Source: Acidobacteriota bacterium (GTDB lineage Bacteria; Acidobacteriota; Terriglobia; 2-12-FULL-54-10). Taken from it: 64,000 bases of DNA. The stretch lies in the NCBI GenBank assembly GCA_009691245.1, contig SHUM01000003.1, positions 3,099 through 67,098 on the forward strand. Direction: 5' to 3'. Made by a program: the position numbers and the translations under genes. This document shows positions 7,500 through 64,000 of the stretch, one piece after another. The notes under the pieces were generated by a model. The model searched no databases and was not told where the DNA came from. It worked only from the letters and a program-made list of their open reading frames with translations. Within the stretch, counting starts at the first letter, position 1. Every line of letters starts with the position of its first letter.

Positions 7500-9398
7500 T
7501 CAGGCTGGAAGTTGAATGATGAAGCGCGTGCCGGCGCTGGGGGCGGACTCCACCTCGACTGTGCCACCGTGGTGGGTGATGATTTCCCGCGCGATGGCCA
7601 GGCCCAGGCCGAAGCCCGGCGCGGTTGAGTGCTCCGCCTGCGCCGTGCGGAAGAAGCGGTCGAACAAGCGCCGCTGATCCGGCTGGGCGATGCCGGGTCC
7701 GTTGTCGGCGACGATGATCTCCACGCCATTCTTGTTATGGCGCCATTCCAGCAGCACCCAACAGCCGCTCGGCGAGTACTTCACGGCGTTGGTCAGCAGG
7801 TTCGAGACGGCGAACTCCAGTAACTCAGCGTCGGCCTCGAAAGTGAGTGGGCCGTTACCAGCAGTCACTCGAAATTCCAGGCCCTTGCGCTCGGCTAGCG
7901 GGCGGATGCGCTCACTGATCGTCGTCAGCAGCGGCGTCAACTCGACCGGCGCGCGGCGCAATTCCAACTCTCCTGCGGAGAGCCGTTCGACACTCAAGAA
8001 GCGCTCGACCAGGCGCGCCAGACGCTGCGACTCTTCGTGCAGCAGGCGCAGCATCTGCTCACGGCGCGCGGGCTCCAGCGCGTAGCGCGCCAGCAACTCG
8101 CTCGATGCTTGTATGGACGCCAGCGGCGTGCGCATCTCGTGCGTGGCCATCTCGAATTGCTGGCGCGCCAGCATCCGCTTATTCTCGGAGTCGAGATAGC
8201 GCCGCCGCCCGACGAGCAACTCGTACGCCTCTCCCGCCATAATCGACACGCCAAAGCACAGCAACAGGCTGAACGCAGGCCATATCTGCCCGGCCAAGAA
8301 CAACACATAGGGAACGATCACGACGGTCGCGCCGATGGCCAGCAGCGCCAGCCACTGCGCCGGCCCGTGCGCGCGCGCCAGCGCGAGCAGCGTAAACGCA
8401 GCGATCAGCAGCATGGCCAGCGCCACGCCCGCATCGCCGATGGGAGTGAGGAACTTTTTCCCGATCAGCGTGTGCAGAATGTTAGCGTGAATCTCGATGC
8501 CGGGCATTCCCGAGGCGGAGTAGTACGGCGTGAATAGCCGGTCGCCGGTGCCCTGCGCGGTAACGCCCAACAGGACGATCTTGCCGCCAAGTTCGGCGGA
8601 TGCGGCGGGATCATCCAGCAACTTCGCAAAACTCACGCGCGGAAATGTCCCGTCCGGCCCGGCGTAGTTGATCCACAGCGTTCGCTGCGTGGTATCCGGC
8701 GCGGGAATGTGCATGACCTCGGTGCTGGCTGTCGGCGCAAGGTGAGCAATTTCGAGGTCGTCGGGAGTCTCGGTGATCAGGGCCGACTGGCCGCTGTCTG
8801 GGCTGGCCATGCCACGCACACACTCCAGCGCGAAGGCCCATAGGCGCTCGCGACCGGAGTATTTTGAAAGCAACACCTGACGGCTGACGCCATCGCCATC
8901 GGGATCGGCGTGAACGTGGCCGATCCTCGCCGCCTGCGCCGCCAGACGCGATAGCGGATGCAGCCAGCCCGAACCCGCCTCCAGCGCGCTCGACAACACC
9001 ACCGGCGTGCCCCCGTCGCGCGCTGCGCGCAGCGCGGCCTCCAGCGCGGCATCATTCGTATCGGCTCCCTGATCGACCAGCAGGATGTCGATGCCCAGCA
9101 AACGAGGTCCGGCGGTGGTGATGCGGCTGATGCCCTCGGCCAGCAGCGCGCGATGCAGCGGCAATGCGCCGTGCCGGGCCAGCGTCGCGTCGTCAATGGC
9201 CACAATCACGATGTCGCTGGAAGAGGCTTCACCATTGGCGTCTATGGTGGTTGGTCCGCGCTGACGAAAATAGAGATCGTAAAAATTCAAGTTGACGCGG
9301 CGGGCGAACGAACTCCACCCCAGCAGCAGCGAGATCGTCGCGCACACCACGCCCAGCAGCAGAGAGGCGACCAGCGGTTTGCGCGGAGAAATCTTCAT
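7500..9398 (-). CDS. CHASE2-domain sensor histidine kinase (orphan; no adjacent response regulator)
   Basis: N-terminal TM, CHASE2-like periplasmic region, TM block, HisKA (MATHEMRTPLASIQ), HATPase_c (ADNGPGIA...GLGLAIA). Confidence 0.8.
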   Translation of the reverse strand: MKISPRKPLVASLLLGVVCATISLLLGWSSFARRVNLNFYDLYFRQRGPTTIDANGEASSSDIVIVAIDDATLARHGALPLHRALLAEGISRITTAGPRLLGIDILLVDQGADTNDAALEAALRAARDGGTPVVLSSALEAGSGWLHPLSRLAAQAARIGHVHADPDGDGVSRQVLLSKYSGRERLWAFALECVRGMASPDSGQSALITETPDDLEIAHLAPTASTEVMHIPAPDTTQRTLWINYAGPDGTFPRVSFAKLLDDPAASAELGGKIVLLGVTAQGTGDRLFTPYYSASGMPGIEIHANILHTLIGKKFLTPIGDAGVALAMLLIAAFTLLALARAHGPAQWLALLAIGATVVIVPYVLFLAGQIWPAFSLLLCFGVSIMAGEAYELLVGRRRYLDSENKRMLARQQFEMATHEMRTPLASIQASSELLARYALEPARREQMLRLLHEESQRLARLVERFLSVERLSAGELELRRAPVELTPLLTTISERIRPLAERKGLEFRVTAGNGPLTFEADAELLEFAVSNLLTNAVKYSPSGCWVLLEWRHNKNGVEIIVADNGPGIAQPDQRRLFDRFFRTAQAEHSTAPGFGLGLAIAREIITHHGGTVEVESAPSAGTRFIIQLPA

Positions 9399-9458
9399 GG
9401 GTGAGGGCGCTCGCGCACCCTGCTCATATTAGCAGAAGGCGGAGAGGCTAGAGTCCGA

Positions 9459-9543
9459 ACAGAGCCGCGACCGGAAGGGAGCGGTTGCAATATAGAGTCT
9501 CGCAGGTCCAATGAGAACCGCTCCCTCCCGGTCGCGGCTCTGT
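9459..9543. repeat. Palindromic hairpin repeat, family 1 copy A (28-bp arms ACAGAGCCGCGACCGGAAGGGAGCGGTT / AACCGCTCCCTCCCGGTCGCGGCTCTGT, ~29-nt loop)
   Basis: Arms read directly from the sequence, 1 mismatch. Lies 8 bp downstream of the SprT-like gene stop. Confidence 0.7.
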
Positions 9544-9550
9544 CACGCCA

Positions 9551-10237
9551 CTAGAGCTGCTTCAGCAACTCCTTGGCCTCCGCGTATTGCGGGAAGCGCT
9601 GCTCCTCGGCACGGAACTCGGAGGAATGCACGCAGCGTCGCGTGCCGCGATGCAGCACGGGATATTTCAGGTGTAGCATCTCGTGATAGAGGATGTACTC
9701 CACCAGCCACAACGGCGTCTGTGGACGGTCAAAGATGCGACTCACGATGATGGCGTTATGCGCGGAGTCAAAGTGTCCCAGCAGCACGCGTGACGCCGTG
9801 CGGCTCCAGCCCAGCGAGGGCCGGGCCATCAGCCCGCCGAAGTAGCGCTGGTTCAAGTCCTCGAACATTTCATCCAGATGAAAGTGTGAGCCCGCCGCCA
9901 CGCCCACATGCTTGCGTCCGCGCACACGGCGGATGATCTGCGCCTGATGGCGCACGCTGCTGCGGTTGAGGAACTGGCGGTAGCGTGCCTGGAACTGTGG
10001 CGGAATGGGTTTGCGATAGAGCTTCGAGATCAGGATGTAGGCGATGGACTCCAGCACCGGCGGCGGCGAACCTTCGAGCAGATCGGAGAGGCTGACTTCC
10101 ATGCGGCCCGCGCGCATGCGGATGACGTTGTTGATGTCCGCGTAGGGGCGAAACGACAAGGCGATCTCCGGCAGCGGCGTGCGTGGCCGCACCGCCAGAT
10201 GAACGCGCTCGAAAATTTCCATGCCTGCTGAAGTCAT
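9551..10237 (-). CDS. SprT-like/DUF45 (YgjP-like) zinc metallopeptidase
   Basis: HEXXH motif in ...WLVEYILYHEMLHLKYP...; ~228 aa; fold-family assignment by motif only. Confidence 0.55.
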   Translation of the reverse strand: MTSAGMEIFERVHLAVRPRTPLPEIALSFRPYADINNVIRMRAGRMEVSLSDLLEGSPPPVLESIAYILISKLYRKPIPPQFQARYRQFLNRSSVRHQAQIIRRVRGRKHVGVAAGSHFHLDEMFEDLNQRYFGGLMARPSLGWSRTASRVLLGHFDSAHNAIIVSRIFDRPQTPLWLVEYILYHEMLHLKYPVLHRGTRRCVHSSEFRAEEQRFPQYAEAKELLKQL

Positions 10238-11582: not shown

Positions 11583-11680
11583 GTTGGTTGTCATTCCGAG
11601 CGGAGCGAGGAATCTGTTTTTGTCCCGCGCGGCTGAAAACAAAAGCAGGTTCCTCGCTCCGCTCGGAATGACAACCAAAC
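11583..11680. repeat. Palindromic repeat family 2 copy (arms TTGGTTGTCATTCCGAGCGGAGCGAGGAA, 29 bp perfect, with a nested inner dyad CTGTTTTTGT/ACAAAAGCAG)
   Basis: Near-perfect ~100-bp palindrome read directly. Sits 6 bp downstream of the TPR gene stop (minus strand). Confidence 0.65.
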
Positions 11681-13063: not shown

Positions 13064-13171
13064 GGCTTGAAATATCCGCCTGTTGCCACCTCCATGCTAC
13101 TTCAAATGAATGGGCAAGGATCAACTGACAACGGAACTTTTCTCTAACCTTTTTTTTGACGGACACTGTAT

Positions 13172-13252
13172 CAGAGCCCCGACCGCCAGGGAGGGGGCAC
13201 GTTCGCCGATTAGCAGTGACCGTTGTGCGTGCCCCCTTCCTGGCGGTCGGGC
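13172..13252. repeat. Hairpin repeat family 1b, degenerate copy (left arm CAGAGCCCCGACCGCCAGGGAGGGGGCACG; right arm CGTGCCCCCTTCCTGGCGGTCGGGC)
   Basis: Same arm sequence as the perfect copy at 48644..48730, with an indel and loss of the terminal TCTG on the right. 21 bp downstream of the uvrA stop. Confidence 0.55.
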
Positions 13253-17683: not shown

Positions 17684-17743
17684 GTCCCATTCTCGCTTGG
17701 CGCGGCTACCGCCCGCAACCCGACGTGGCGCGGGCGTTGCGCA

Positions 17744-17826
17744 ACAGAGCCGCGACCGAGAGGGAGCGGTAGTTGGATGGCATATCAGCATTCATGGAAC
17801 CGCTCCCTCTCGGTCGCGGCTCTGTT
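17744..17826. repeat. Palindromic hairpin repeat, family 1 copy B (27-bp perfect arms AACAGAGCCGCGACCGAGAGGGAGCGGT, 28-nt loop)
   Basis: Perfect inverted repeat read directly. Lies between divergent gene starts (17683 minus, 17966 plus). Confidence 0.75.
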
Positions 17827-17965
17827 GCGGTCTTTCGCTGCGCTCAAGATGACAGCCTTGTATGACGGGCGTAACGAGTTGGCCCACTCGCTTGAAGTCG
17901 CCCAACGGAACCTGTATTCTCTTTCCTACCCCGGCACATTGGGACTTATTACAGGAGGATCATTT

Positions 17966-19100: not shown

Positions 19101-19225
19101 AAGTTGTCATTCCGAGGAGCGTCGCGACGAGGAATCTGCTGTTCATCAGAGCCGCGCGCGCAAGCAAGCGGACCCGCCCGGTCAACGCGGAAAGCAGATT
19201 CATCACTGCGCTCGGAATGACAGTA
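19101..19225. repeat. Palindromic repeat family 2, degenerate copy (TTGTCATTCCGAGGAGCG...GAGGAATCTGCTG // CAGATTCATCACTGCGCTCGGAATGACAG)
   Basis: Shares the GTCATTCCGAG / CTCGGAATGAC termini and GAGGAATCTG core with 11583..11680. Sits 20 bp after the NHL gene stop. Confidence 0.5.
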
Positions 19226-48000: not shown

Positions 48001-48377
48001 AGCTTTTCGGCGGACGCAAACTGGGCACTCCCGATCTGTACTTCGATCCGTGCGCGTTCGTTCTACAGCCGCAGGGCTTCTACGGCAACGCCGCGCGCAA
48101 CGCGCTCACCGGCCCGGGATTTTTCAATGCCGATCTTTCGCTGAGCAGAAACTTTGCGCTGCACGAGCGGCAGCAGCTTGAGTTCCGCGCCGACCTGTTC
48201 AACATTCTGAACAGGCCCAACTTCGCGACGCCCAGCAGCCCCACCGGCGCGCAGGTCTCCGGCGGCGCCATCGTGTTTCCCGATGCCACCGGCGCGCCCG
48301 CCGGGAATGCGGGACAGATCTTCCGCACGGTGAATGACTCGCGACAGATTCAGTTTTCGTTGCGCTACAGCTTTTAG
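45096..48377 (+). CDS. TonB-dependent receptor with N-terminal carboxypeptidase-regulatory-like domain (start uncertain, 45060-45096)
   Basis: Signal peptide, then a CarboxypepD_reg-like domain (GTIRGQVRDSSGGAIASAVLLL...YELQASAPNF), plug and a long beta-barrel ending in the aromatic terminal strand (...FSLRYSF). Confidence 0.8.
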   Translation: MIWPPSGKSPRLRARTFSRSHSTLLSALLVLLTPQVAVHAQSVGGTIRGQVRDSSGGAIASAVLLLRDTDKGLDYTGHSDPSGVFQFAAPVGNYELQASAPNFTAVKEVRLNLSLGQTIMLEIALPVAGIQQSIEVVATAPLVETTSGVLAGLVSREQLAALPLNGRDFGQLALLQPGVAANSNGANSPFGGRWATFVVNGQLDQSTLFLVDGSELNDLASGRNPSGSSGLLLGLDSVQEFQVLLHNYKAEFGKNSGGVIHVATRSGTNALRGTVFEFLRNSRLDAKNFFDLSAQPIPAFQRNQFGASLGGPLRRDRTFFFLSYEGLRERKAITSVATVPAAGVRASAAGNVIPFLNLYPLPNGPLNPDGRTASFSSSVVQPAREDFGLVRIDHRLRREWNSHTKFSTQDSLVEPPFASTPVPGFPQSLPHRITNALVGLTVPFSANALGDFHFAFNRTFGAIELPPPPGGLTITPVAGRNFGLINVTGISNLGTQTFVPRAAQNLFESAAQFSIRQGRHAQKYGVTVQRYQDNELRGTFFNGQYTFAGLTQFLAGTPASWLGVLGGTSAAGPASPAGWRWTTISAFAQEDFELTPRFTLNLGLRYEFTTSPGDVLGQIANLRSPLDATVTLGGSLFNTIARSFSPRFGFAWSPTRGNRSDERSALRGGFGIFYNPLVVNMWANSRLVPPFVNTVLLAGGPPFPNPLATGRAPALSTTGQALDFNLSQPYTMQWNIEWQQQFADGWVTRAAYAGNRSLHILRSLESNPGTPVVLADGRKCFNFLAAAGGSNAACPSGSTVRRNLNFGPIRGRSSDGRSWYDSLQFTAERRISDGATVQGSYTWSKSLSTNNSSFTSFPSQPSNTQDPDDIYLDKAVSAFDVRHRLAVHAILALPSFAPGAPGRVLHGWRIAAIGSLSSGYPFTVVDGINRSQNLQTDVALADRPNWAARATVAGATSGVSRACRIDGQELFGGRKLGTPDLYFDPCAFVLQPQGFYGNAARNALTGPGFFNADLSLSRNFALHERQQLEFRADLFNILNRPNFATPSSPTGAQVSGGAIVFPDATGAPAGNAGQIFRTVNDSRQIQFSLRYSF

Positions 48378-48390
48378 GTTTAGTTTCGAA

Positions 48391-48470
48391 AACAGAGCCG
48401 CGACCGTTAGGGAGCGCGGGTTGCTCCCCGTAACGAAAGCAACCACCGCTCCCTAACGGTCGCGACTCTG
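48391..48470. repeat. Palindromic hairpin repeat, family 1 copy C (arms AACAGAGCCGCGACCGTTAGGGAGCG / CGCTCCCTAACGGTCGCGACTCTG, loop with nested hairpin)
   Basis: Read directly. 14 bp after the TonB-dependent receptor stop. Confidence 0.65.
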
Positions 48471-48489
48471 ATCCGATTTCCCGACTTAT

Positions 48490-49281
48490 ATGAATTCACC
48501 GTGGCACCTTCCGCGCATCCCCGAGCCTGAGGAGATGGACTGCTCGGACGAGGTGGAGGTCTACAACTCCGCTGCCGCCTCGGCACACCTCGATGCCATC
48601 GACAACACGTTTGTAGAACATCTGATGAGGCTGCTGCCGGAATCAGAGCCCCGACCGCCAGGGAGGGGGCACGCCAGGGACACAGGGATGATCGGCAACC
48701 GTGCCCCCTCCCTGGCGGTCGGGGCTCTGAGGGATCAAGTGCGAAAATCACAATATCTTGGGTTGGATATTGGCTGCGGCCCGGCGCAGATTCCTGTGAA
48801 GACGCTTCAGCGGGTTCCAGGCCTGCGGTTGGTTGGTCTGGATGGCGCGGGCAACATGCTGCGCTGCGCGCGCGCGAATGCCGTGCAAGCTGGCGTTGAG
48901 GATCGGCTGATACTGGCCCAAGGCGACGCGAAGAATCTGCCCTTCGCGGACGGCACGTTCTCCATCGTCACCTGCAACTCGATGCTGCACCATGCGCGTG
49001 ATCCTCTGGCGCTGTTGCGCGAGATACGCCGCGTGGCCGCTCCCGGTGCGGCGATCCTACTGCGCGACCTACGGCGTCCGGCGTATCCGCTTCAGGCCTG
49101 GCACCTATGGCGGCATGGACGGAAATACAGTGGGCTGATGCGCCGCCTGTTCGACTTGAGCGTGCAAGCCGCATACACCGCCGACGAACTGGAGGCCATG
49201 CTGCGCGCCGTGCCCATCCCAGGCGCGCGCGTGTTCCGCTACAAGGGCGCGCATATTGGAATTGAAAGGCGGGGGAATTGA
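48490..49281 (+). CDS. Class I SAM-dependent methyltransferase carrying an in-frame 87-bp hairpin-repeat insertion
   Basis: SAM motif LDIGCGPAQ and acidic motif (ILLRDL). N-terminal region is ~30 aa longer than usual. The extra residues SEPRPPGRGHARDTGMIGNRAPSLAVGAL are exactly the translation of the repeat at 48644..48730. Confidence 0.7.
   Translation: MNSPWHLPRIPEPEEMDCSDEVEVYNSAAASAHLDAIDNTFVEHLMRLLPESEPRPPGRGHARDTGMIGNRAPSLAVGALRDQVRKSQYLGLDIGCGPAQIPVKTLQRVPGLRLVGLDGAGNMLRCARANAVQAGVEDRLILAQGDAKNLPFADGTFSIVTCNSMLHHARDPLALLREIRRVAAPGAAILLRDLRRPAYPLQAWHLWRHGRKYSGLMRRLFDLSVQAAYTADELEAMLRAVPIPGARVFRYKGAHIGIERRGN
48644..48730. repeat. Hairpin repeat family 1b, perfect copy (30-bp arms TCAGAGCCCCGACCGCCAGGGAGGGGGCACG, 25-nt loop), located inside the CDS
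   Basis: Perfect 30-bp inverted repeat read directly. 87 bp = 29 codons, so the frame is preserved. Confidence 0.75.
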
Positions 49282-56025: not shown

Positions 56026-56155
56026 GTAAACGGTGCATTGATTATAGGGAACCGGCGGCGTGCAGGTCAATCCGGCCTCCAGCGAGATCTGTATCTGGTA
56101 TGCTAAGGCGATCGCGGTTCAACGAGGCATCAGCCAGACAATAGAGGAGAAACAG

Positions 56156-56582
56156 ATGGACATGCTGGGAAATGTTTTGGGGAGCCTGAAGGGTGGCGGC
56201 CAAGGCGGCGGACTGGCCGGAGCCGTCATGCAGCTGCTGATCCATAAAGGTGGGTCGAGTGGCCAAGGCGGCAGCACCGGCTTGGCGGGGCTAATCCAGA
56301 CTATGAACTCGAATGGTTTGGGGGATGTGGTAAGCTCCTGGGTCGGTACAGGACAGAACAAAGCGATCAGCGCCGCACAGTTATCATCTGTGCTGGGCAA
56401 GAATCAAATCGCATAATTGGCGCAGAAGGCCGGCGTCGCGGAACATGACGCGCCCAATTTGTTGGCCGGGCTGTTGCCCAATCTGGTGGACAAGCTGACA
56501 CCAACGGGGCAGGTTCCCGCCGAGAATGATCTAGCCTCGATGGGTATGAATCTGCTAAAAGGCATCATGGGCGGCAAATAGT
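56156..56582 (+). pseudogene. YidB/DUF937-family protein interrupted by one in-frame TAA (56414-56416)
   Basis: AGGAGA RBS then ATG 56156. MDMLGNVLGSLKGGGQGGGLAGAVMQLL...NGLGDVVSSWVGTGQNKAISAAQLSSVLGKNQIA*LAQKAGVAEHDAPNLLAGLLPNLVDKLTPTGQVPAENDL...LLKGIMGGK aligns end-to-end with YidB. The stop replaces a conserved sense position. Confidence 0.55.
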
Positions 56583-61516: not shown

Positions 61517-62962
61517 TTGGAGTCTCAATCTACAATTGGAGGGCGCTCGGCCGTCTTGCCGGAAGTCTTAATCGTCGAGGATGATTTCGCTTTCTCGCAG
61601 ACCATGCTGGCACTGCTGGAGGCGGAGGGGTTCGCTGCTGAGGCCGTAAACTCGACCGCCGATGCGCTCGATCGGTTCTCGGCGCGTTCCTATCCCATTG
61701 TCATCTCCGACATCTACATTGACGAGCGCACTGGGCTGGATGTGCTGCGCCGCGCGCGCGCCGTGGAGCCGGAGTGCGCGGTGATCCTGATTACCGGGCA
61801 GGGATCGCTCGACACCGTGCTGGAAGCCACGCGCGCCGGTGCGTTCGATTACATCGCCAAGCCCTTCCCGCTCGACCGGCTGGTGCAGACGGTGCGCAAT
61901 GCCGCGAATGCCTGGGCAGCCCGCCGCCAGAACTCGCTTGATGAGACAGCGACTCTCCCTGGCCCCGGCGAATACTCACCAGCGTTGGTGGGCCACTCCG
62001 ACGCCATGGTGGAGACGTACAAGTTCATCTCGCGCGTGGCCGACTCCGACGCCACCGTGCTGCTACAAGGCGAGACCGGCACGGGCAAGGAGATGGTGGC
62101 GCGGCTGATCCACCAGGCCAGCCCGCGGCGCGCGCGGCGCATGGTGGTGGTGGATTGCGGCGCGCTCTCCGGCTCGCTACTGGAAGCTGAATTGTTCGGC
62201 GCCACGCGCGGCGCCTACACTGGCGCGGATCGTGATCGCACGGGGTTGCTGGAAGCCGCCGAGGGCGGCACGGTCTTCCTGGATGAGATCGGCGAAATGG
62301 AGTGGGCCTTCCAGCAGCGGCTGCTGCGCTTCCTCCAGGAGCGCGAGGTGCGTCCGCTAGGCAGCAACACAGCGAAGAAGGTAGATGTGCGCGTAGTTGC
62401 CGCCACAAACTGTGATTTGCGCGGGATGGTCGCCGAGAAGAAGTTTCGCGAGGACCTCTGGTATCGCCTGCAGGTAGCCACCTGCCAGCTGGCGCCGCTG
62501 CGTGATCGCCGGCAGGACATTCCCGAACTGGTGAGCTTCTTTCTAGCGAAGTTTGCACGTCAGGCCGGCACCCAGACAAGCACCTCATCCGTTCGCGCGC
62601 TGCGCTTCAGCGACGACGCGCTGGTTGTGGCTCAACAATACGGCTGGCCGGGCAATGTGCGGCAGTTGGAGAATCTGCTGGAGCGGCTGGCGATTCTGCA
62701 CTCCGGTGCGGTGGTGGATGCGGCGGGATTGCGCAGTGCGCTGTCGGCGATGGACCCCACTAGTCAGAGCCAAACCAGCCCGCATCAGCCAGGATCGACG
62801 ATAGCCGGCCCTGCGGAGTCGCTATCCAGCCTGGAAGAAGACCACATCCGCAGGGTGTTGGAAGCCACGCGCGGCAACAAAACTCGCGCGGCGGAGATTC
62901 TCGGCATCGAGCGCAAGACACTCTATCGCAAACTTGAAAAGATGCGTCTGGCGCATTCCTAA
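61517..62962 (+). CDS. Sigma-54-dependent response regulator (NtrC family: REC + AAA+ + Fis-type HTH); start may be the TTG at 61556 (MPEVLIVEDD)
   Basis: REC domain (LIVEDD...D...), Walker A GETGTGKE, GAFTGA-like loop (GAYTGA), ESELFGH-like (EAELFGAT), C-terminal HTH (TRGNKTRAAEILGIERKTLYRKL). Confidence 0.85.
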   Translation: MESQSTIGGRSAVLPEVLIVEDDFAFSQTMLALLEAEGFAAEAVNSTADALDRFSARSYPIVISDIYIDERTGLDVLRRARAVEPECAVILITGQGSLDTVLEATRAGAFDYIAKPFPLDRLVQTVRNAANAWAARRQNSLDETATLPGPGEYSPALVGHSDAMVETYKFISRVADSDATVLLQGETGTGKEMVARLIHQASPRRARRMVVVDCGALSGSLLEAELFGATRGAYTGADRDRTGLLEAAEGGTVFLDEIGEMEWAFQQRLLRFLQEREVRPLGSNTAKKVDVRVVAATNCDLRGMVAEKKFREDLWYRLQVATCQLAPLRDRRQDIPELVSFFLAKFARQAGTQTSTSSVRALRFSDDALVVAQQYGWPGNVRQLENLLERLAILHSGAVVDAAGLRSALSAMDPTSQSQTSPHQPGSTIAGPAESLSSLEEDHIRRVLEATRGNKTRAAEILGIERKTLYRKLEKMRLAHS

Positions 62963-63133
62963 TGCGGTCGAGGCTCTGTTTGCGGCGTGTGTCATTCTGA
63001 CACGCCCGCCAAGCAATGTCTCAATGTGGTGGGGCGGAATGCTACGGTTGGATGTTCCAACCTTGTTCGCGAGCCGGATACTGCAACAAATTAAATCAAT
63101 GGGATGCGGGCGATGTGGCGGACACGTCAGTTT

Positions 63134-63149
63134 TGGCACACCTCTTGCA
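63134..63149 (+). promoter_or_regulatory. Sigma-54 promoter, exact -24/-12 consensus TGGCAC-N5-TTGCA
   Basis: TGGCACacctcTTGCA read directly. Perfect dyad GTGTCA-TTC-TGACAC (62989-63003) ~140 bp upstream in UAS position. Immediately downstream of the NtrC-family gene. Confidence 0.5.
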
Positions 63150-63367
63150 CTAGGCAATGGTAGTTCAGAACAAACGATTGCGAGCCAGTGGGCTTGGTGG
63201 ATCGGGAGGGACATAGGGCTGCTCTCCCTAGTCAATGCGGACCCGACCTGCCGAGTTCACTGGCTCTCTTTTTTTCCCAAAAACAATTTTCCAATAGCCA
63301 TCCTGTAACTACGGGTTTCCCGCCCGCTCGGGATGACGACTCTGGGGTATGGCGCCGCAACGTTCCG

Positions 63368-63727
63368 TTACAGGTTTTTGATTCGGTTCTTGATTTTCTC
63401 GGCCAATTTTTCGATGGCCTCGGCCTTTTTCATCGCGCCTAATGACATTTCGTCTTCCGTGGTGGCGCGCAAAATGTCGCGCAACTCGGTGCTCATCTCC
63501 ACTAATTGCCGCGACTCCTTCTGCATCGCTTCGAAACTTTCCTTGAGCATGCGCCTGGCGAGCTTCTTGCGAGGATCGTTGGGATCCGTCTCGTCGTGGC
63601 GGGAATTGGTGGATGGGAGACGGGGGCTGTTCCGCTGGGCCTGACCCACCCAGGCGGCCCCCAGCAGTATCCCGATCACCAGTATCATGATTCGCATGAT
63701 GGCGTTTCGTAAACAGGTGTTCTTCAT
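63368..63727 (-). CDS. Small secreted/periplasmic helical protein, function unknown
   Basis: Signal peptide MRIMILVIGILLGAAWVGQA. Charged helical body. 119 aa. Confidence 0.5.
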   Translation of the reverse strand: MKNTCLRNAIMRIMILVIGILLGAAWVGQAQRNSPRLPSTNSRHDETDPNDPRKKLARRMLKESFEAMQKESRQLVEMSTELRDILRATTEDEMSLGAMKKAEAIEKLAEKIKNRIKNL

Positions 63728-63927
63728 GATGCCCTCCTCTGCAGGGACAGTGCATCCGCGGCCCGAGTAGCGGCCTTCTGGCTCTCATCATACAAAATTA
63801 ATGGGCGGATGTTGGAGGATTATTCAGCGAGCAGGCAGGTCGCGCGAAGGACGAACCAGGCCGCGCTCGTGAGATTCTGCGACTGGGCATTCTTGGACCG
63901 GGAGTACGCCGACCCTTACTCGCGATA

Positions 63928-64000
63928 ATGGAAACGCAGTTGAACTTTCTTGATTTGGATGATGTCGCCCTCATTCAACTCCTGCGGCGCGGTCAGCGCC
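63928..64000 (+). CDS. 5' end of an ORF running off the window (METQLNFLDLDDVALIQLLRRGQR...), possibly an ECF sigma-factor-like N-terminus
   Basis: Only 24 codons visible. Assignment speculative. Confidence 0.2.
   Translation, partial: METQLNFLDLDDVALIQLLRRGQR

Follow-up and report, generated by a model that had tools for sequence, protein, structure and literature searches.

What does a sigma-54-type promoter transcribe when it lies directly behind the gene for an NtrC-family activator and the next gene faces it? The question is raised by a locus in a 64,000 nucleotide (nt) stretch of an Acidobacteriota genome (GenBank assembly GCA_009691245.1, contig SHUM01000003.1, positions 3,099 to 67,098 of the forward strand), which is called the window here and is meant at its full length. 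The regulator gene of this locus ends, as first reported, at bp 62962, and it is followed by a perfect dyad, a -24/-12 promoter and a stem-loop with a U-run (Table 1). A preliminary description of the sequence had proposed that a sigma-54 transcript of ~110-130 nt, serving as a small RNA (sRNA) or carrying a small open reading frame (ORF), is made there under the adjacent activator. The conserved promoter, dyad and spacing, together with a covarying stem-loop and U-run, support such a transcript, which is probably the product of a free-standing, sigma-54- and activator-dependent non-coding RNA gene of ~115 nt.

Table 1. Features of the predicted RNA locus, its relatives and the rest of the window (window coordinates unless a locus is named)
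Feature	Position (bp)	Strand	Basis or remark
NtrC-family response regulator (bacterial enhancer-binding protein), presumed activator	61517-62962	+	ORF, Pfam
Dyad GTGTCA-TTC-TGACAC (GTGTCAttcTGACAC = GTGTCATTCTGACAC), putative regulator site	62989-63003	no strand	Inferred upstream activating sequence
A/T-rich tract caacaaattaaatcaatg, between dyad and promoter	63086-63103	no strand	Read from sequence
Sigma-54 promoter TGGCAC-acctc-TTGCA (TGGCACacctcTTGCA = TGGCACACCTCTTGCA)	63134-63149	+	-24 GG 63135-63136; -12 GC 63147-63148
Predicted non-coding RNA, ~111-116 nt	63160-63275	+	+1 at ~G63160 by usual sigma-54 spacing; 3' end in U-run
5' segment GUAGUUCAGAACAAACGAUUGC, conserved, mostly unpaired, candidate base-pairing seed	63160-63181	+	Alignment and folds
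Long irregular stem-loop with covarying outer arms; with the U-run, intrinsic terminator	63182-63266	+	Inverted repeat I1
Apical module: CGGG...CCCG clamp, small hairpin GGGCUGCUCUCCCU (63216-63229), internal-loop motif AUGCGGAC (63235-63242)	63203-63245	+	
U7 tract (T7 run), transcript 3' end	63269-63275	+	Read from sequence
Convergent gene, 119-amino acid secreted protein	63368-63727	-	ORF
CHASE2-HisKA-HATPase histidine kinase, likely cognate sensor	7506-9389	-	Pfam CHASE2, HisKA, HATPase_c
SprT-like (HEMLH) protein, 228 amino acids, precedes kinase	9551-10237	-	63% identity to L082 protein
Subtype 2 RNA	L169 4519-4624; L170 4520-4625; L171 4821-4926		
REP-like repeat CAGAGCCGCGACCG..AGGGAGCGGT	9448-9554; 17740-17829; 48393-48470		
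REP-like repeat TCAGAGCCCCGACCGCCAGGGAGGGGGCACG	13171-13251; 48643-48730		
REP-like repeat TGTCATTCCGAGCGGAGCGAGGAATC	11584-11678; 19191-19222		

The promoter and the dyad in the window

The sequence TGGCAC-N5-TTGCW has a single match on the two strands of the window; it lies behind the regulator gene and agrees with all 11 fixed positions of the consensus, as the preliminary description had stated. Chance matches had been put there at well under one per window. The mean of 0.11 matches in dinucleotide-shuffled sequence bears this out, but 11 of 100 shuffles carry at least one, and the promoter match, although rare in the window, is by itself not decisive. A simple scan of bp 62700-64000 found no sigma-70-like promoter. 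The dyad had been placed ~140 bp upstream, and its centre indeed lies ~139 bp from the -24 GG (145 bp from start to start); it is unique in the window even when one mismatch is allowed (0.08 expected). The sole other near-dyad (bp 50695, two mismatches) is ~1 kb from the nearest relaxed promoter match, and no dyad is within reach of any other relaxed match to the promoter in the window. One such match, at bp 11431 on the minus strand, was set aside as lying inside a signal-peptide coding sequence. Promoter and dyad are raised above chance by their conservation in relatives, not by their rarity in the window.

Conservation of the unit after orthologous regulators

Thirteen further loci were obtained from ortholog contigs (a protein search showed many metagenomic orthologs at 56-95% identity) and a metagenome scan. 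With the window they make a family set of 14 distinct loci (the window, L001, L081-L085, L089-L091 and L168-L171) whose regulators are 56-95% identical. The same unit of promoter, 5' end, stem-loop and U-run lies directly after the regulator gene in all 14. In the 14-sequence alignment the promoter columns TGG and TGC (TGG-N9-TGC) are invariant, and the distance from the first promoter T to a GGTTCA motif is 27-28 nt (measured in nine relatives and visible likewise in the other four); in the window the corresponding hexamer is AGTTCA, 28 nt from the first promoter T. The preliminary description had reckoned with a promoter that relatives might lack and with an orthologous protein gene that might have been overlooked downstream; the promoter is conserved after orthologous regulators, and no such gene is there.

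A dyad of the form G(T/A)GTCA-N3-(T/G)GACAC, with at most one mismatch, is present in 11 of the 14 loci, 109-145 bp upstream of the promoter (six distinct sequences have it at 109-111 bp, L083 at 120 bp, and the window and L081 at 145 bp), and it frequently overlaps the stop codon of the regulator gene. Its distance (145 bp in the window, 109-120 bp in relatives) falls within the ~80-200 bp at which an enhancer is looked for, and we infer that it is the upstream activating sequence to which the adjacent regulator binds. Between dyad and promoter lies the A/T-rich tract of Table 1, and other loci have similar patches 30-50 bp upstream of the promoter; it is faintly possible that this is a DNA-bending or IHF-type site. 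A second inverted repeat (62997-63011 with 63116-63130) was dismissed, as it is not retained even in L081. The same interval holds a small hairpin, GGTTGG-ATGTT-CCAACC, with a T-rich tract (63046-63069 in the window and 1995-2020 in L081, where it includes TTTTT); it was found in just these two close relatives and may be the regulator gene's own terminator.

The genes on the other side of the unit are not constant. A convergent gene follows the RNA in the window, L081 and L083 (the 119-amino acid secreted protein), in L082 (an FHA protein) and in L084 (a ParE toxin). The gene is co-directional in L085 and L089-L091 (coaE, from the gene table in the former and from sequence in the latter three), in L001 and L168 (a Cu-type P-type ATPase) and in L169-L171 (a BNR-repeat protein). 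Since the identity and orientation of the downstream gene vary and the regulator upstream does not, the unit belongs to the regulator.

The RNA keeps to one clade of these regulators. A scan of a genome collection with the regulator gave 80 loci, nearly all from Bryobacterales-type Acidobacteriota, at 50-54% identity. The strict promoter pattern has no match downstream of the regulators in these first 80 genome loci, because 79 of the 80 belong to the distant regulator clade (50-54%) and the promoter of L001 is weak. An nhmmer search with the window RNA alone found L001 only. Two covariance models were built from family members, R1 from the RNA only and R2 from promoter plus RNA of both subtypes (see below). 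Each has one copy in the window, the predicted RNA, which scores 107 bits with R1 and 129 bits with R2. In 155 loci with a regulator 50-54% identical the RNA is absent according to both models, and a promoter-plus-GTTCA pattern agrees.

Behind the weak promoter of L001, whose regulator is 62% identical, stand GGTTCAAAACAGACGATTG, a long stem that differs in sequence, the two motifs GGGTTGCTCGCCCT and AATGCGGAC, and a T7 run. L169-L171 form a second subtype, in which the promoter geometry and the 5' end (GUGGUUCAGACGUUUCC) are the same and the apical part is different. Since the apical part is replaced here while the 5' end is kept, the latter is the most constrained part of the RNA.

Two Bryobacteraceae loci with a regulator 54% identical and without this RNA, L015 (4931-5240, minus strand) and L093 (4130-4450, minus strand), carry the same dyad (GTGTCACAGTGACAC and GTGTCACACCGACAC, respectively) in an element that is convergent with the regulator. 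A sigma-54-type promoter (TGGCACTCGGTTTGCT and TGGCGGGACACTTGCT) lies ~100 bp past the dyad, and there is a conserved region of ~170 nt that is 82% identical between the two loci, ends in a stem and T7, and is unrelated to the window RNA (R2 gives it a weak match of 17 bits). It is possibly a second RNA family under the same kind of activator, which hints at a module that keeps its activator and DNA site and swaps its RNA.

The predicted RNA and its structure

Given the fixed promoter spacing, with C at -12, transcription should start on the G of GUGGUUCA, which in the window is G63160, and it should end in the U-run. Across the members the unit is 103-118 nt long and lies outside protein genes, with its own predicted promoter and intrinsic terminator. 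The window RNA folds at -53.4 kcal/mol (z -4.7). For bp 63158-63280 the plus strand folds at -53.3 kcal/mol (z -3.8; none of 200 shuffles is as good) and the minus strand at -43.5 kcal/mol; because of its G-U pairs the plus strand is favored, being ~10 kcal/mol more stable. The GGGAG...CTCCC hairpin that had been noted originally is present, but it is just the tip of a stem-loop that is much longer (63182-63266) and runs up to the U-run. A simple terminator scan reported none at this stem-loop because its loop limit is 8 nt; a U-run of at least four follows the stem in every member.

The structure is supported by covariation. Ten distinct members, aligned with MAFFT without guidance, yield a consensus of 23 pairs in RNAalifold, and 14 of these pairs show compensatory double changes. 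In this consensus 92% of cells are paired, versus 34-56% in controls whose 3' partner is shifted by 1-3 columns, and none of 500 column shuffles reaches the observed covariation. Seven members folded singly give the same picture, a 5' part of ~20 nt that is open or weakly paired, one irregular stem-loop of 80-95 nt and the U-run, with z from -2.6 to -5.1.

Two parts of the RNA are conserved in sequence. One is the 5' segment, which the folds leave unpaired or weakly paired; it contains the invariant GTTCA, and both subtypes have GUGGUUCA(R)(R)AC...ACG(A/U)UU. The other is the apical module (CGGG...GGGCUGCUCUCCCU...AAUGCGGACCCG), in which GCGG is invariant in the 14-sequence alignment and GCTC and the adjoining G/C columns show little or no variation. 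Its sequence is kept while the outer stem varies freely, which suggests a sequence-specific role, such as contact with a protein or a second RNA. In Rfam 15, searched at a permissive E-value, the window region drew nothing except microRNA-hairpin noise, which fell far short of the gathering score; nine further members and the L015 region had no Rfam match at E<=0.1, and an ARAGORN scan of the RNA for tRNA and tmRNA found nothing.

Mode of action and alternative explanations

The organization of the locus suggests the following sequence of events. The CHASE2 sensor kinase described below would phosphorylate the NtrC-family response regulator encoded beside the RNA gene, and this regulator would bind GTGTCA-N3-TGACAC ~110-145 bp upstream and remodel the closed complex at TGGCAC-N5-TTGCA, so that expression in vivo should depend on sigma-54. 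The transcript would run from ~G63160 past the long stem-loop to the U-run. It most likely acts in trans; its open 5' end (GUGGUUCA...ACGAUUG) would provide a base-pairing seed, and the stem-loop and U-tail would serve in termination, in stability and probably as a platform for a chaperone. We give action in trans by pairing of the 5' end about an even chance.

The structures that the preliminary description listed downstream of the promoter, a 19-codon ORF, a GTG-start frame of 84 codons (63188-63442), the convergent gene and the T7 run, all exist. Other explanations of the locus are conceivable. The transcript could be a leaderless mRNA for a small peptide (the 19-codon ORF, MVVQNKRL...), or have a dual function, as the predicted +1 coincides with an ATG (63158-63160) and most relatives open with GUG-GUU-CA, so that an in-frame start at the extreme 5' end is frequent. 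Yet L083 begins with ACG and L001 with GCG, neither of them a start codon, and there is no Shine-Dalgarno sequence. The frame, read by eye, has 18-19 codons in the window and L081 and from >40 to 80, through the terminator, in L082, L084 and L085; among five members read in this way similarity is limited to the first ~7 residues. Alignment gaps of 1, 10, 12 and 14 columns are not multiples of three, and substitutions track base-pair covariation rather than codon positions. With neither a start codon in two members nor a conserved length and content, the small ORF put forward at the outset is extremely improbable as the product of this locus. A reading without any separate RNA gene, in which the stem-loop is a (bidirectional) terminator or a leader or attenuator of the downstream gene and the promoter match is incidental, is also very unlikely. 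The hairpin does lie between convergent genes in the window and L081-L084 and could terminate both, and a co-directional gene comes after it in L085, L089-L091, L001 and L168-L171. Such a hairpin, however, leaves unexplained the invariant, exactly spaced TGG/TGC, the fixed 27-28 nt to GGUUCA and the conserved dyad ~110 bp upstream. The identity and orientation of the downstream gene differ while the unit stays with the regulator. The G-U pairs favor the plus strand, and in the window and L081 there is a separate small hairpin with a T-tract (63046-63069) between the stop codon of the regulator gene and the promoter.

If the RNA gene is accepted, the main alternative to seed pairing concerns the part of the molecule that acts. 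The same transcription would yield an RNA that binds or titrates a protein through the apical module (CGGGAGGGAC...GGGCUGCUCUCCCU...AAUGCGGAC), with no pairing by the 5' end. This would account for an apical sequence that is kept while the outer stem varies, which exceeds the needs of a terminator, and for the GGA-type motifs in the module; it would also sit well with the failure to find a base-pairing target in the window or among the module genes. CrcZ is a precedent, a sigma-54 RNA encoded beside its activator gene that acts by sequestration. On the other hand, the module is single, whereas sponge RNAs typically carry several copies of a motif; L169-L171 retain the 5' end but have another apical sequence; and the GGA contexts, read by eye, do not consistently match the A(N)GGA consensus of CsrA. 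Titration by the apical module therefore seems to us rather unlikely.

Several observations weigh against a free-standing sigma-54-dependent RNA that acts by its 5' end. The promoter of L001 and L168 is weak (TGGGCAT.GACGTGCT), retaining just GG-N10-GC; L001 has a degenerate dyad, and L168 and L169-L171 have none that is recognizable. No RpoN-box ORF or rpoN gene lies within the 64 kb, and the presence of sigma-54 is thus deduced from the presence of the activator. In eight of the 14 loci, by our count, the gene behind the RNA is co-directional, and in L169 and L170 a BNR/Sortilin-repeat ORF (~950 amino acids) has its start codon just ~30 nt past the terminator; in that lineage read-through or attenuation may play a part. 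RNAduplex gave no convincing target for the 5' segment in any of the candidate translation-initiation regions of the window, and pairing of the seed with the starts of the SprT-like, kinase, regulator and 119-amino acid protein genes in eight loci gave z from -1.6 to +1.9, no better than background. The best non-self duplex (-22.8 kcal/mol, near bp 56361 on the minus strand) was rejected, being antisense to the YidB-like gene on the plus strand and not mRNA, and the remaining matches in the window are within the background distribution. Lastly, the kinase of the window lies ~52 kb from the regulator, so that the coupling of the two is deduced from relatives.

The regulator, its presumed kinase and neighboring genes

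The regulator has the Pfam domains Response_reg, Sigma54_activat (222 bits), AAA_lid_14 and HTH_8 (a Fis-type helix-turn-helix). Its loop reads GAYTGA, a Phe-to-Tyr variant of GAFTGA that is tolerated in other activators. It is identical to MSO19154.1, from a metagenome-assembled genome (MAG) of an Acidobacteriota bacterium, which is annotated from an internal start at ~61556. The protein falls below the cut-offs of all named NCBIfam equivalogs, scoring 371.8 bits (versus a cut-off of 558.6) for NtrC (TIGR01818), 318 (versus 800) for LuxO and 320 (versus 763) for GlrR, and likewise for AtoC and ZraR. Judged by these scores it is a member of the NtrC family and not NtrC proper or a nitrogen regulator. 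The hint at nitrogen control in the preliminary description is not upheld, in view of this score and of the CHASE2 sensor that is the likely cognate kinase.

The order kinase-regulator-RNA is found in all eight fetched relatives with upstream gene tables (L082-L085 and L168-L171), and a kinase ORF is likewise seen in L001. The window kinase is 56% identical over 640 amino acids to that of L082 (tblastn), and it is likely the cognate sensor of the regulator. The kinase gene has an SprT-like gene before it in L082, L083, L168 and the contig with P0004, and the 228-amino acid protein that precedes the window kinase has a SprT-like Pfam match of 24.8 bits, just below the cut-off of 25.6. In the window kinase and SprT-like gene (7506-10237, minus strand) are opposite in strand to regulator and RNA (61517-63275, plus strand). 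A single ~54-kb inversion, one of whose breakpoints fell between kinase and regulator, would fit this layout; neither inverted repeats nor remnants of mobile elements were found at the presumed ends.

The convergent 119-amino acid protein matches Metal_resist (Spy/CpxP-type) weakly, with 19 bits, which is below the cut-off. Its gene is the last of a PP2C phosphatase-FHA-p119 operon (p119 being this protein), which extends beyond bp 63916 in the window and is kept beside the module in several relatives (L081, L082 and the P0004 contig). L001 and L168 have, in place of p119, a gene for a heavy-metal P-type ATPase after the RNA. Such neighbors point, very faintly, toward the envelope or metals as a theme.

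Other features of the window

Three families of REP-like palindromic intergenic repeats are present in the window (Table 1), and one of the repeats gives the sole other R1 match there, a weak one of 18 bits at bp 48375-48472. The YidB-like (DUF937-type) gene at bp 56060-56581 on the plus strand has an in-frame TAA at 56414-56416 (...GKNQIA* LAQKAGV...); it could be a pseudogene, or the stop could reflect a sequencing error or read-through. The sense strand of this gene resembles the 5' segment of the RNA.

Significance and comparison with known systems

Acidobacteriota are abundant in soil and poorly tractable. A literature search on Acidobacteria or CHASE2 together with sRNA and sigma-54, RpoN or NtrC found no sigma-54-dependent sRNA in this phylum, and we know of no characterized sRNA in it. 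The locus offers a testable circuit, made up of a sensor kinase whose CHASE2 domain is extracytoplasmic, a specific activator with a candidate DNA site, and a single sRNA with a candidate seed. It provides a putative DNA site for an uncharacterized activator clade and a handle on CHASE2 signaling, and targets of the RNA, once predicted from complete genomes, could point to the signal sensed by the CHASE2 system. The RNA has no model in Rfam, and R1 and R2 can be used to annotate the family in MAGs.

In Pseudomonas aeruginosa the sRNA NrsZ, which was discovered by searching intergenic regions for TGGCAC-N5-TTGCW, has its gene immediately behind ntrC, in a tail-to-tail intergenic region, and depends on RpoN and NtrC; CrcZ also has an RpoN-dependent promoter (PMC4253122). 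NrsZ resembles the acidobacterial RNA in its place directly after the activator gene and in its promoter motif. It differs in having three repeated stem-loop units and in being processed, and the acidobacterial RNA has no sequence similarity to it in the Rfam comparison. The activator of NrsZ is a true nitrogen regulator, whereas that of the window scores below the NtrC cut-off and is paired with a CHASE2 kinase. Sigma-54 RNAs are encoded beside NtrC-family activator genes in other systems as well, namely CrcZ with CbrA/CbrB in Pseudomonas, Qrr with LuxO in Vibrio, and GlmY with GlrK/GlrR in Enterobacteria, and they are main or dedicated outputs of these two-component systems. CrcZ and GlmY act by protein sequestration or as decoys, the Qrr RNAs by Hfq-dependent pairing. 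The gene arrangement is shared with our locus; the RNA families, sensors and phyla are different. Rfam covariance models detect no RNA homology with Pxr (see below), NrsZ, CrcZ, Qrr or GlmY/Z.

A close counterpart in gene order is PxrK/PxrR (MXAN_1077/1078) of Myxococcus xanthus, where the gene for the sRNA Pxr lies immediately downstream of an NtrC-like regulator gene; the pxr intergenic region has a predicted sigma-54 promoter with an upstream enhancer-binding region, and PxrR is required for synthesis of the sRNA (PMC5684412, PMC10217877). Both systems have the order histidine kinase, NtrC-like sigma-54 response regulator, sRNA gene. Pxr, however, is described as having three stem-loops and is processed to a short form, whereas in the acidobacterial RNA an open 5' end leads into a single long stem-loop; the phylum, Acidobacteriota, is also another one. 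Tentatively, and as something we would sooner doubt than affirm, the RNA may be the dedicated and perhaps only output of a module of SprT-like protein, CHASE2 kinase, sigma-54 activator and sRNA that turns an extracytoplasmic signal wholly into post-transcriptional control, as LuxO-Qrr and GlrR-GlmY would parallel, perhaps with an ancestry shared with PxrK/PxrR-Pxr. The RNA family is new and its plan, a sigma-54 activator gene followed by its sRNA gene, is already known; the locus adds a further phylum to this recurring design.

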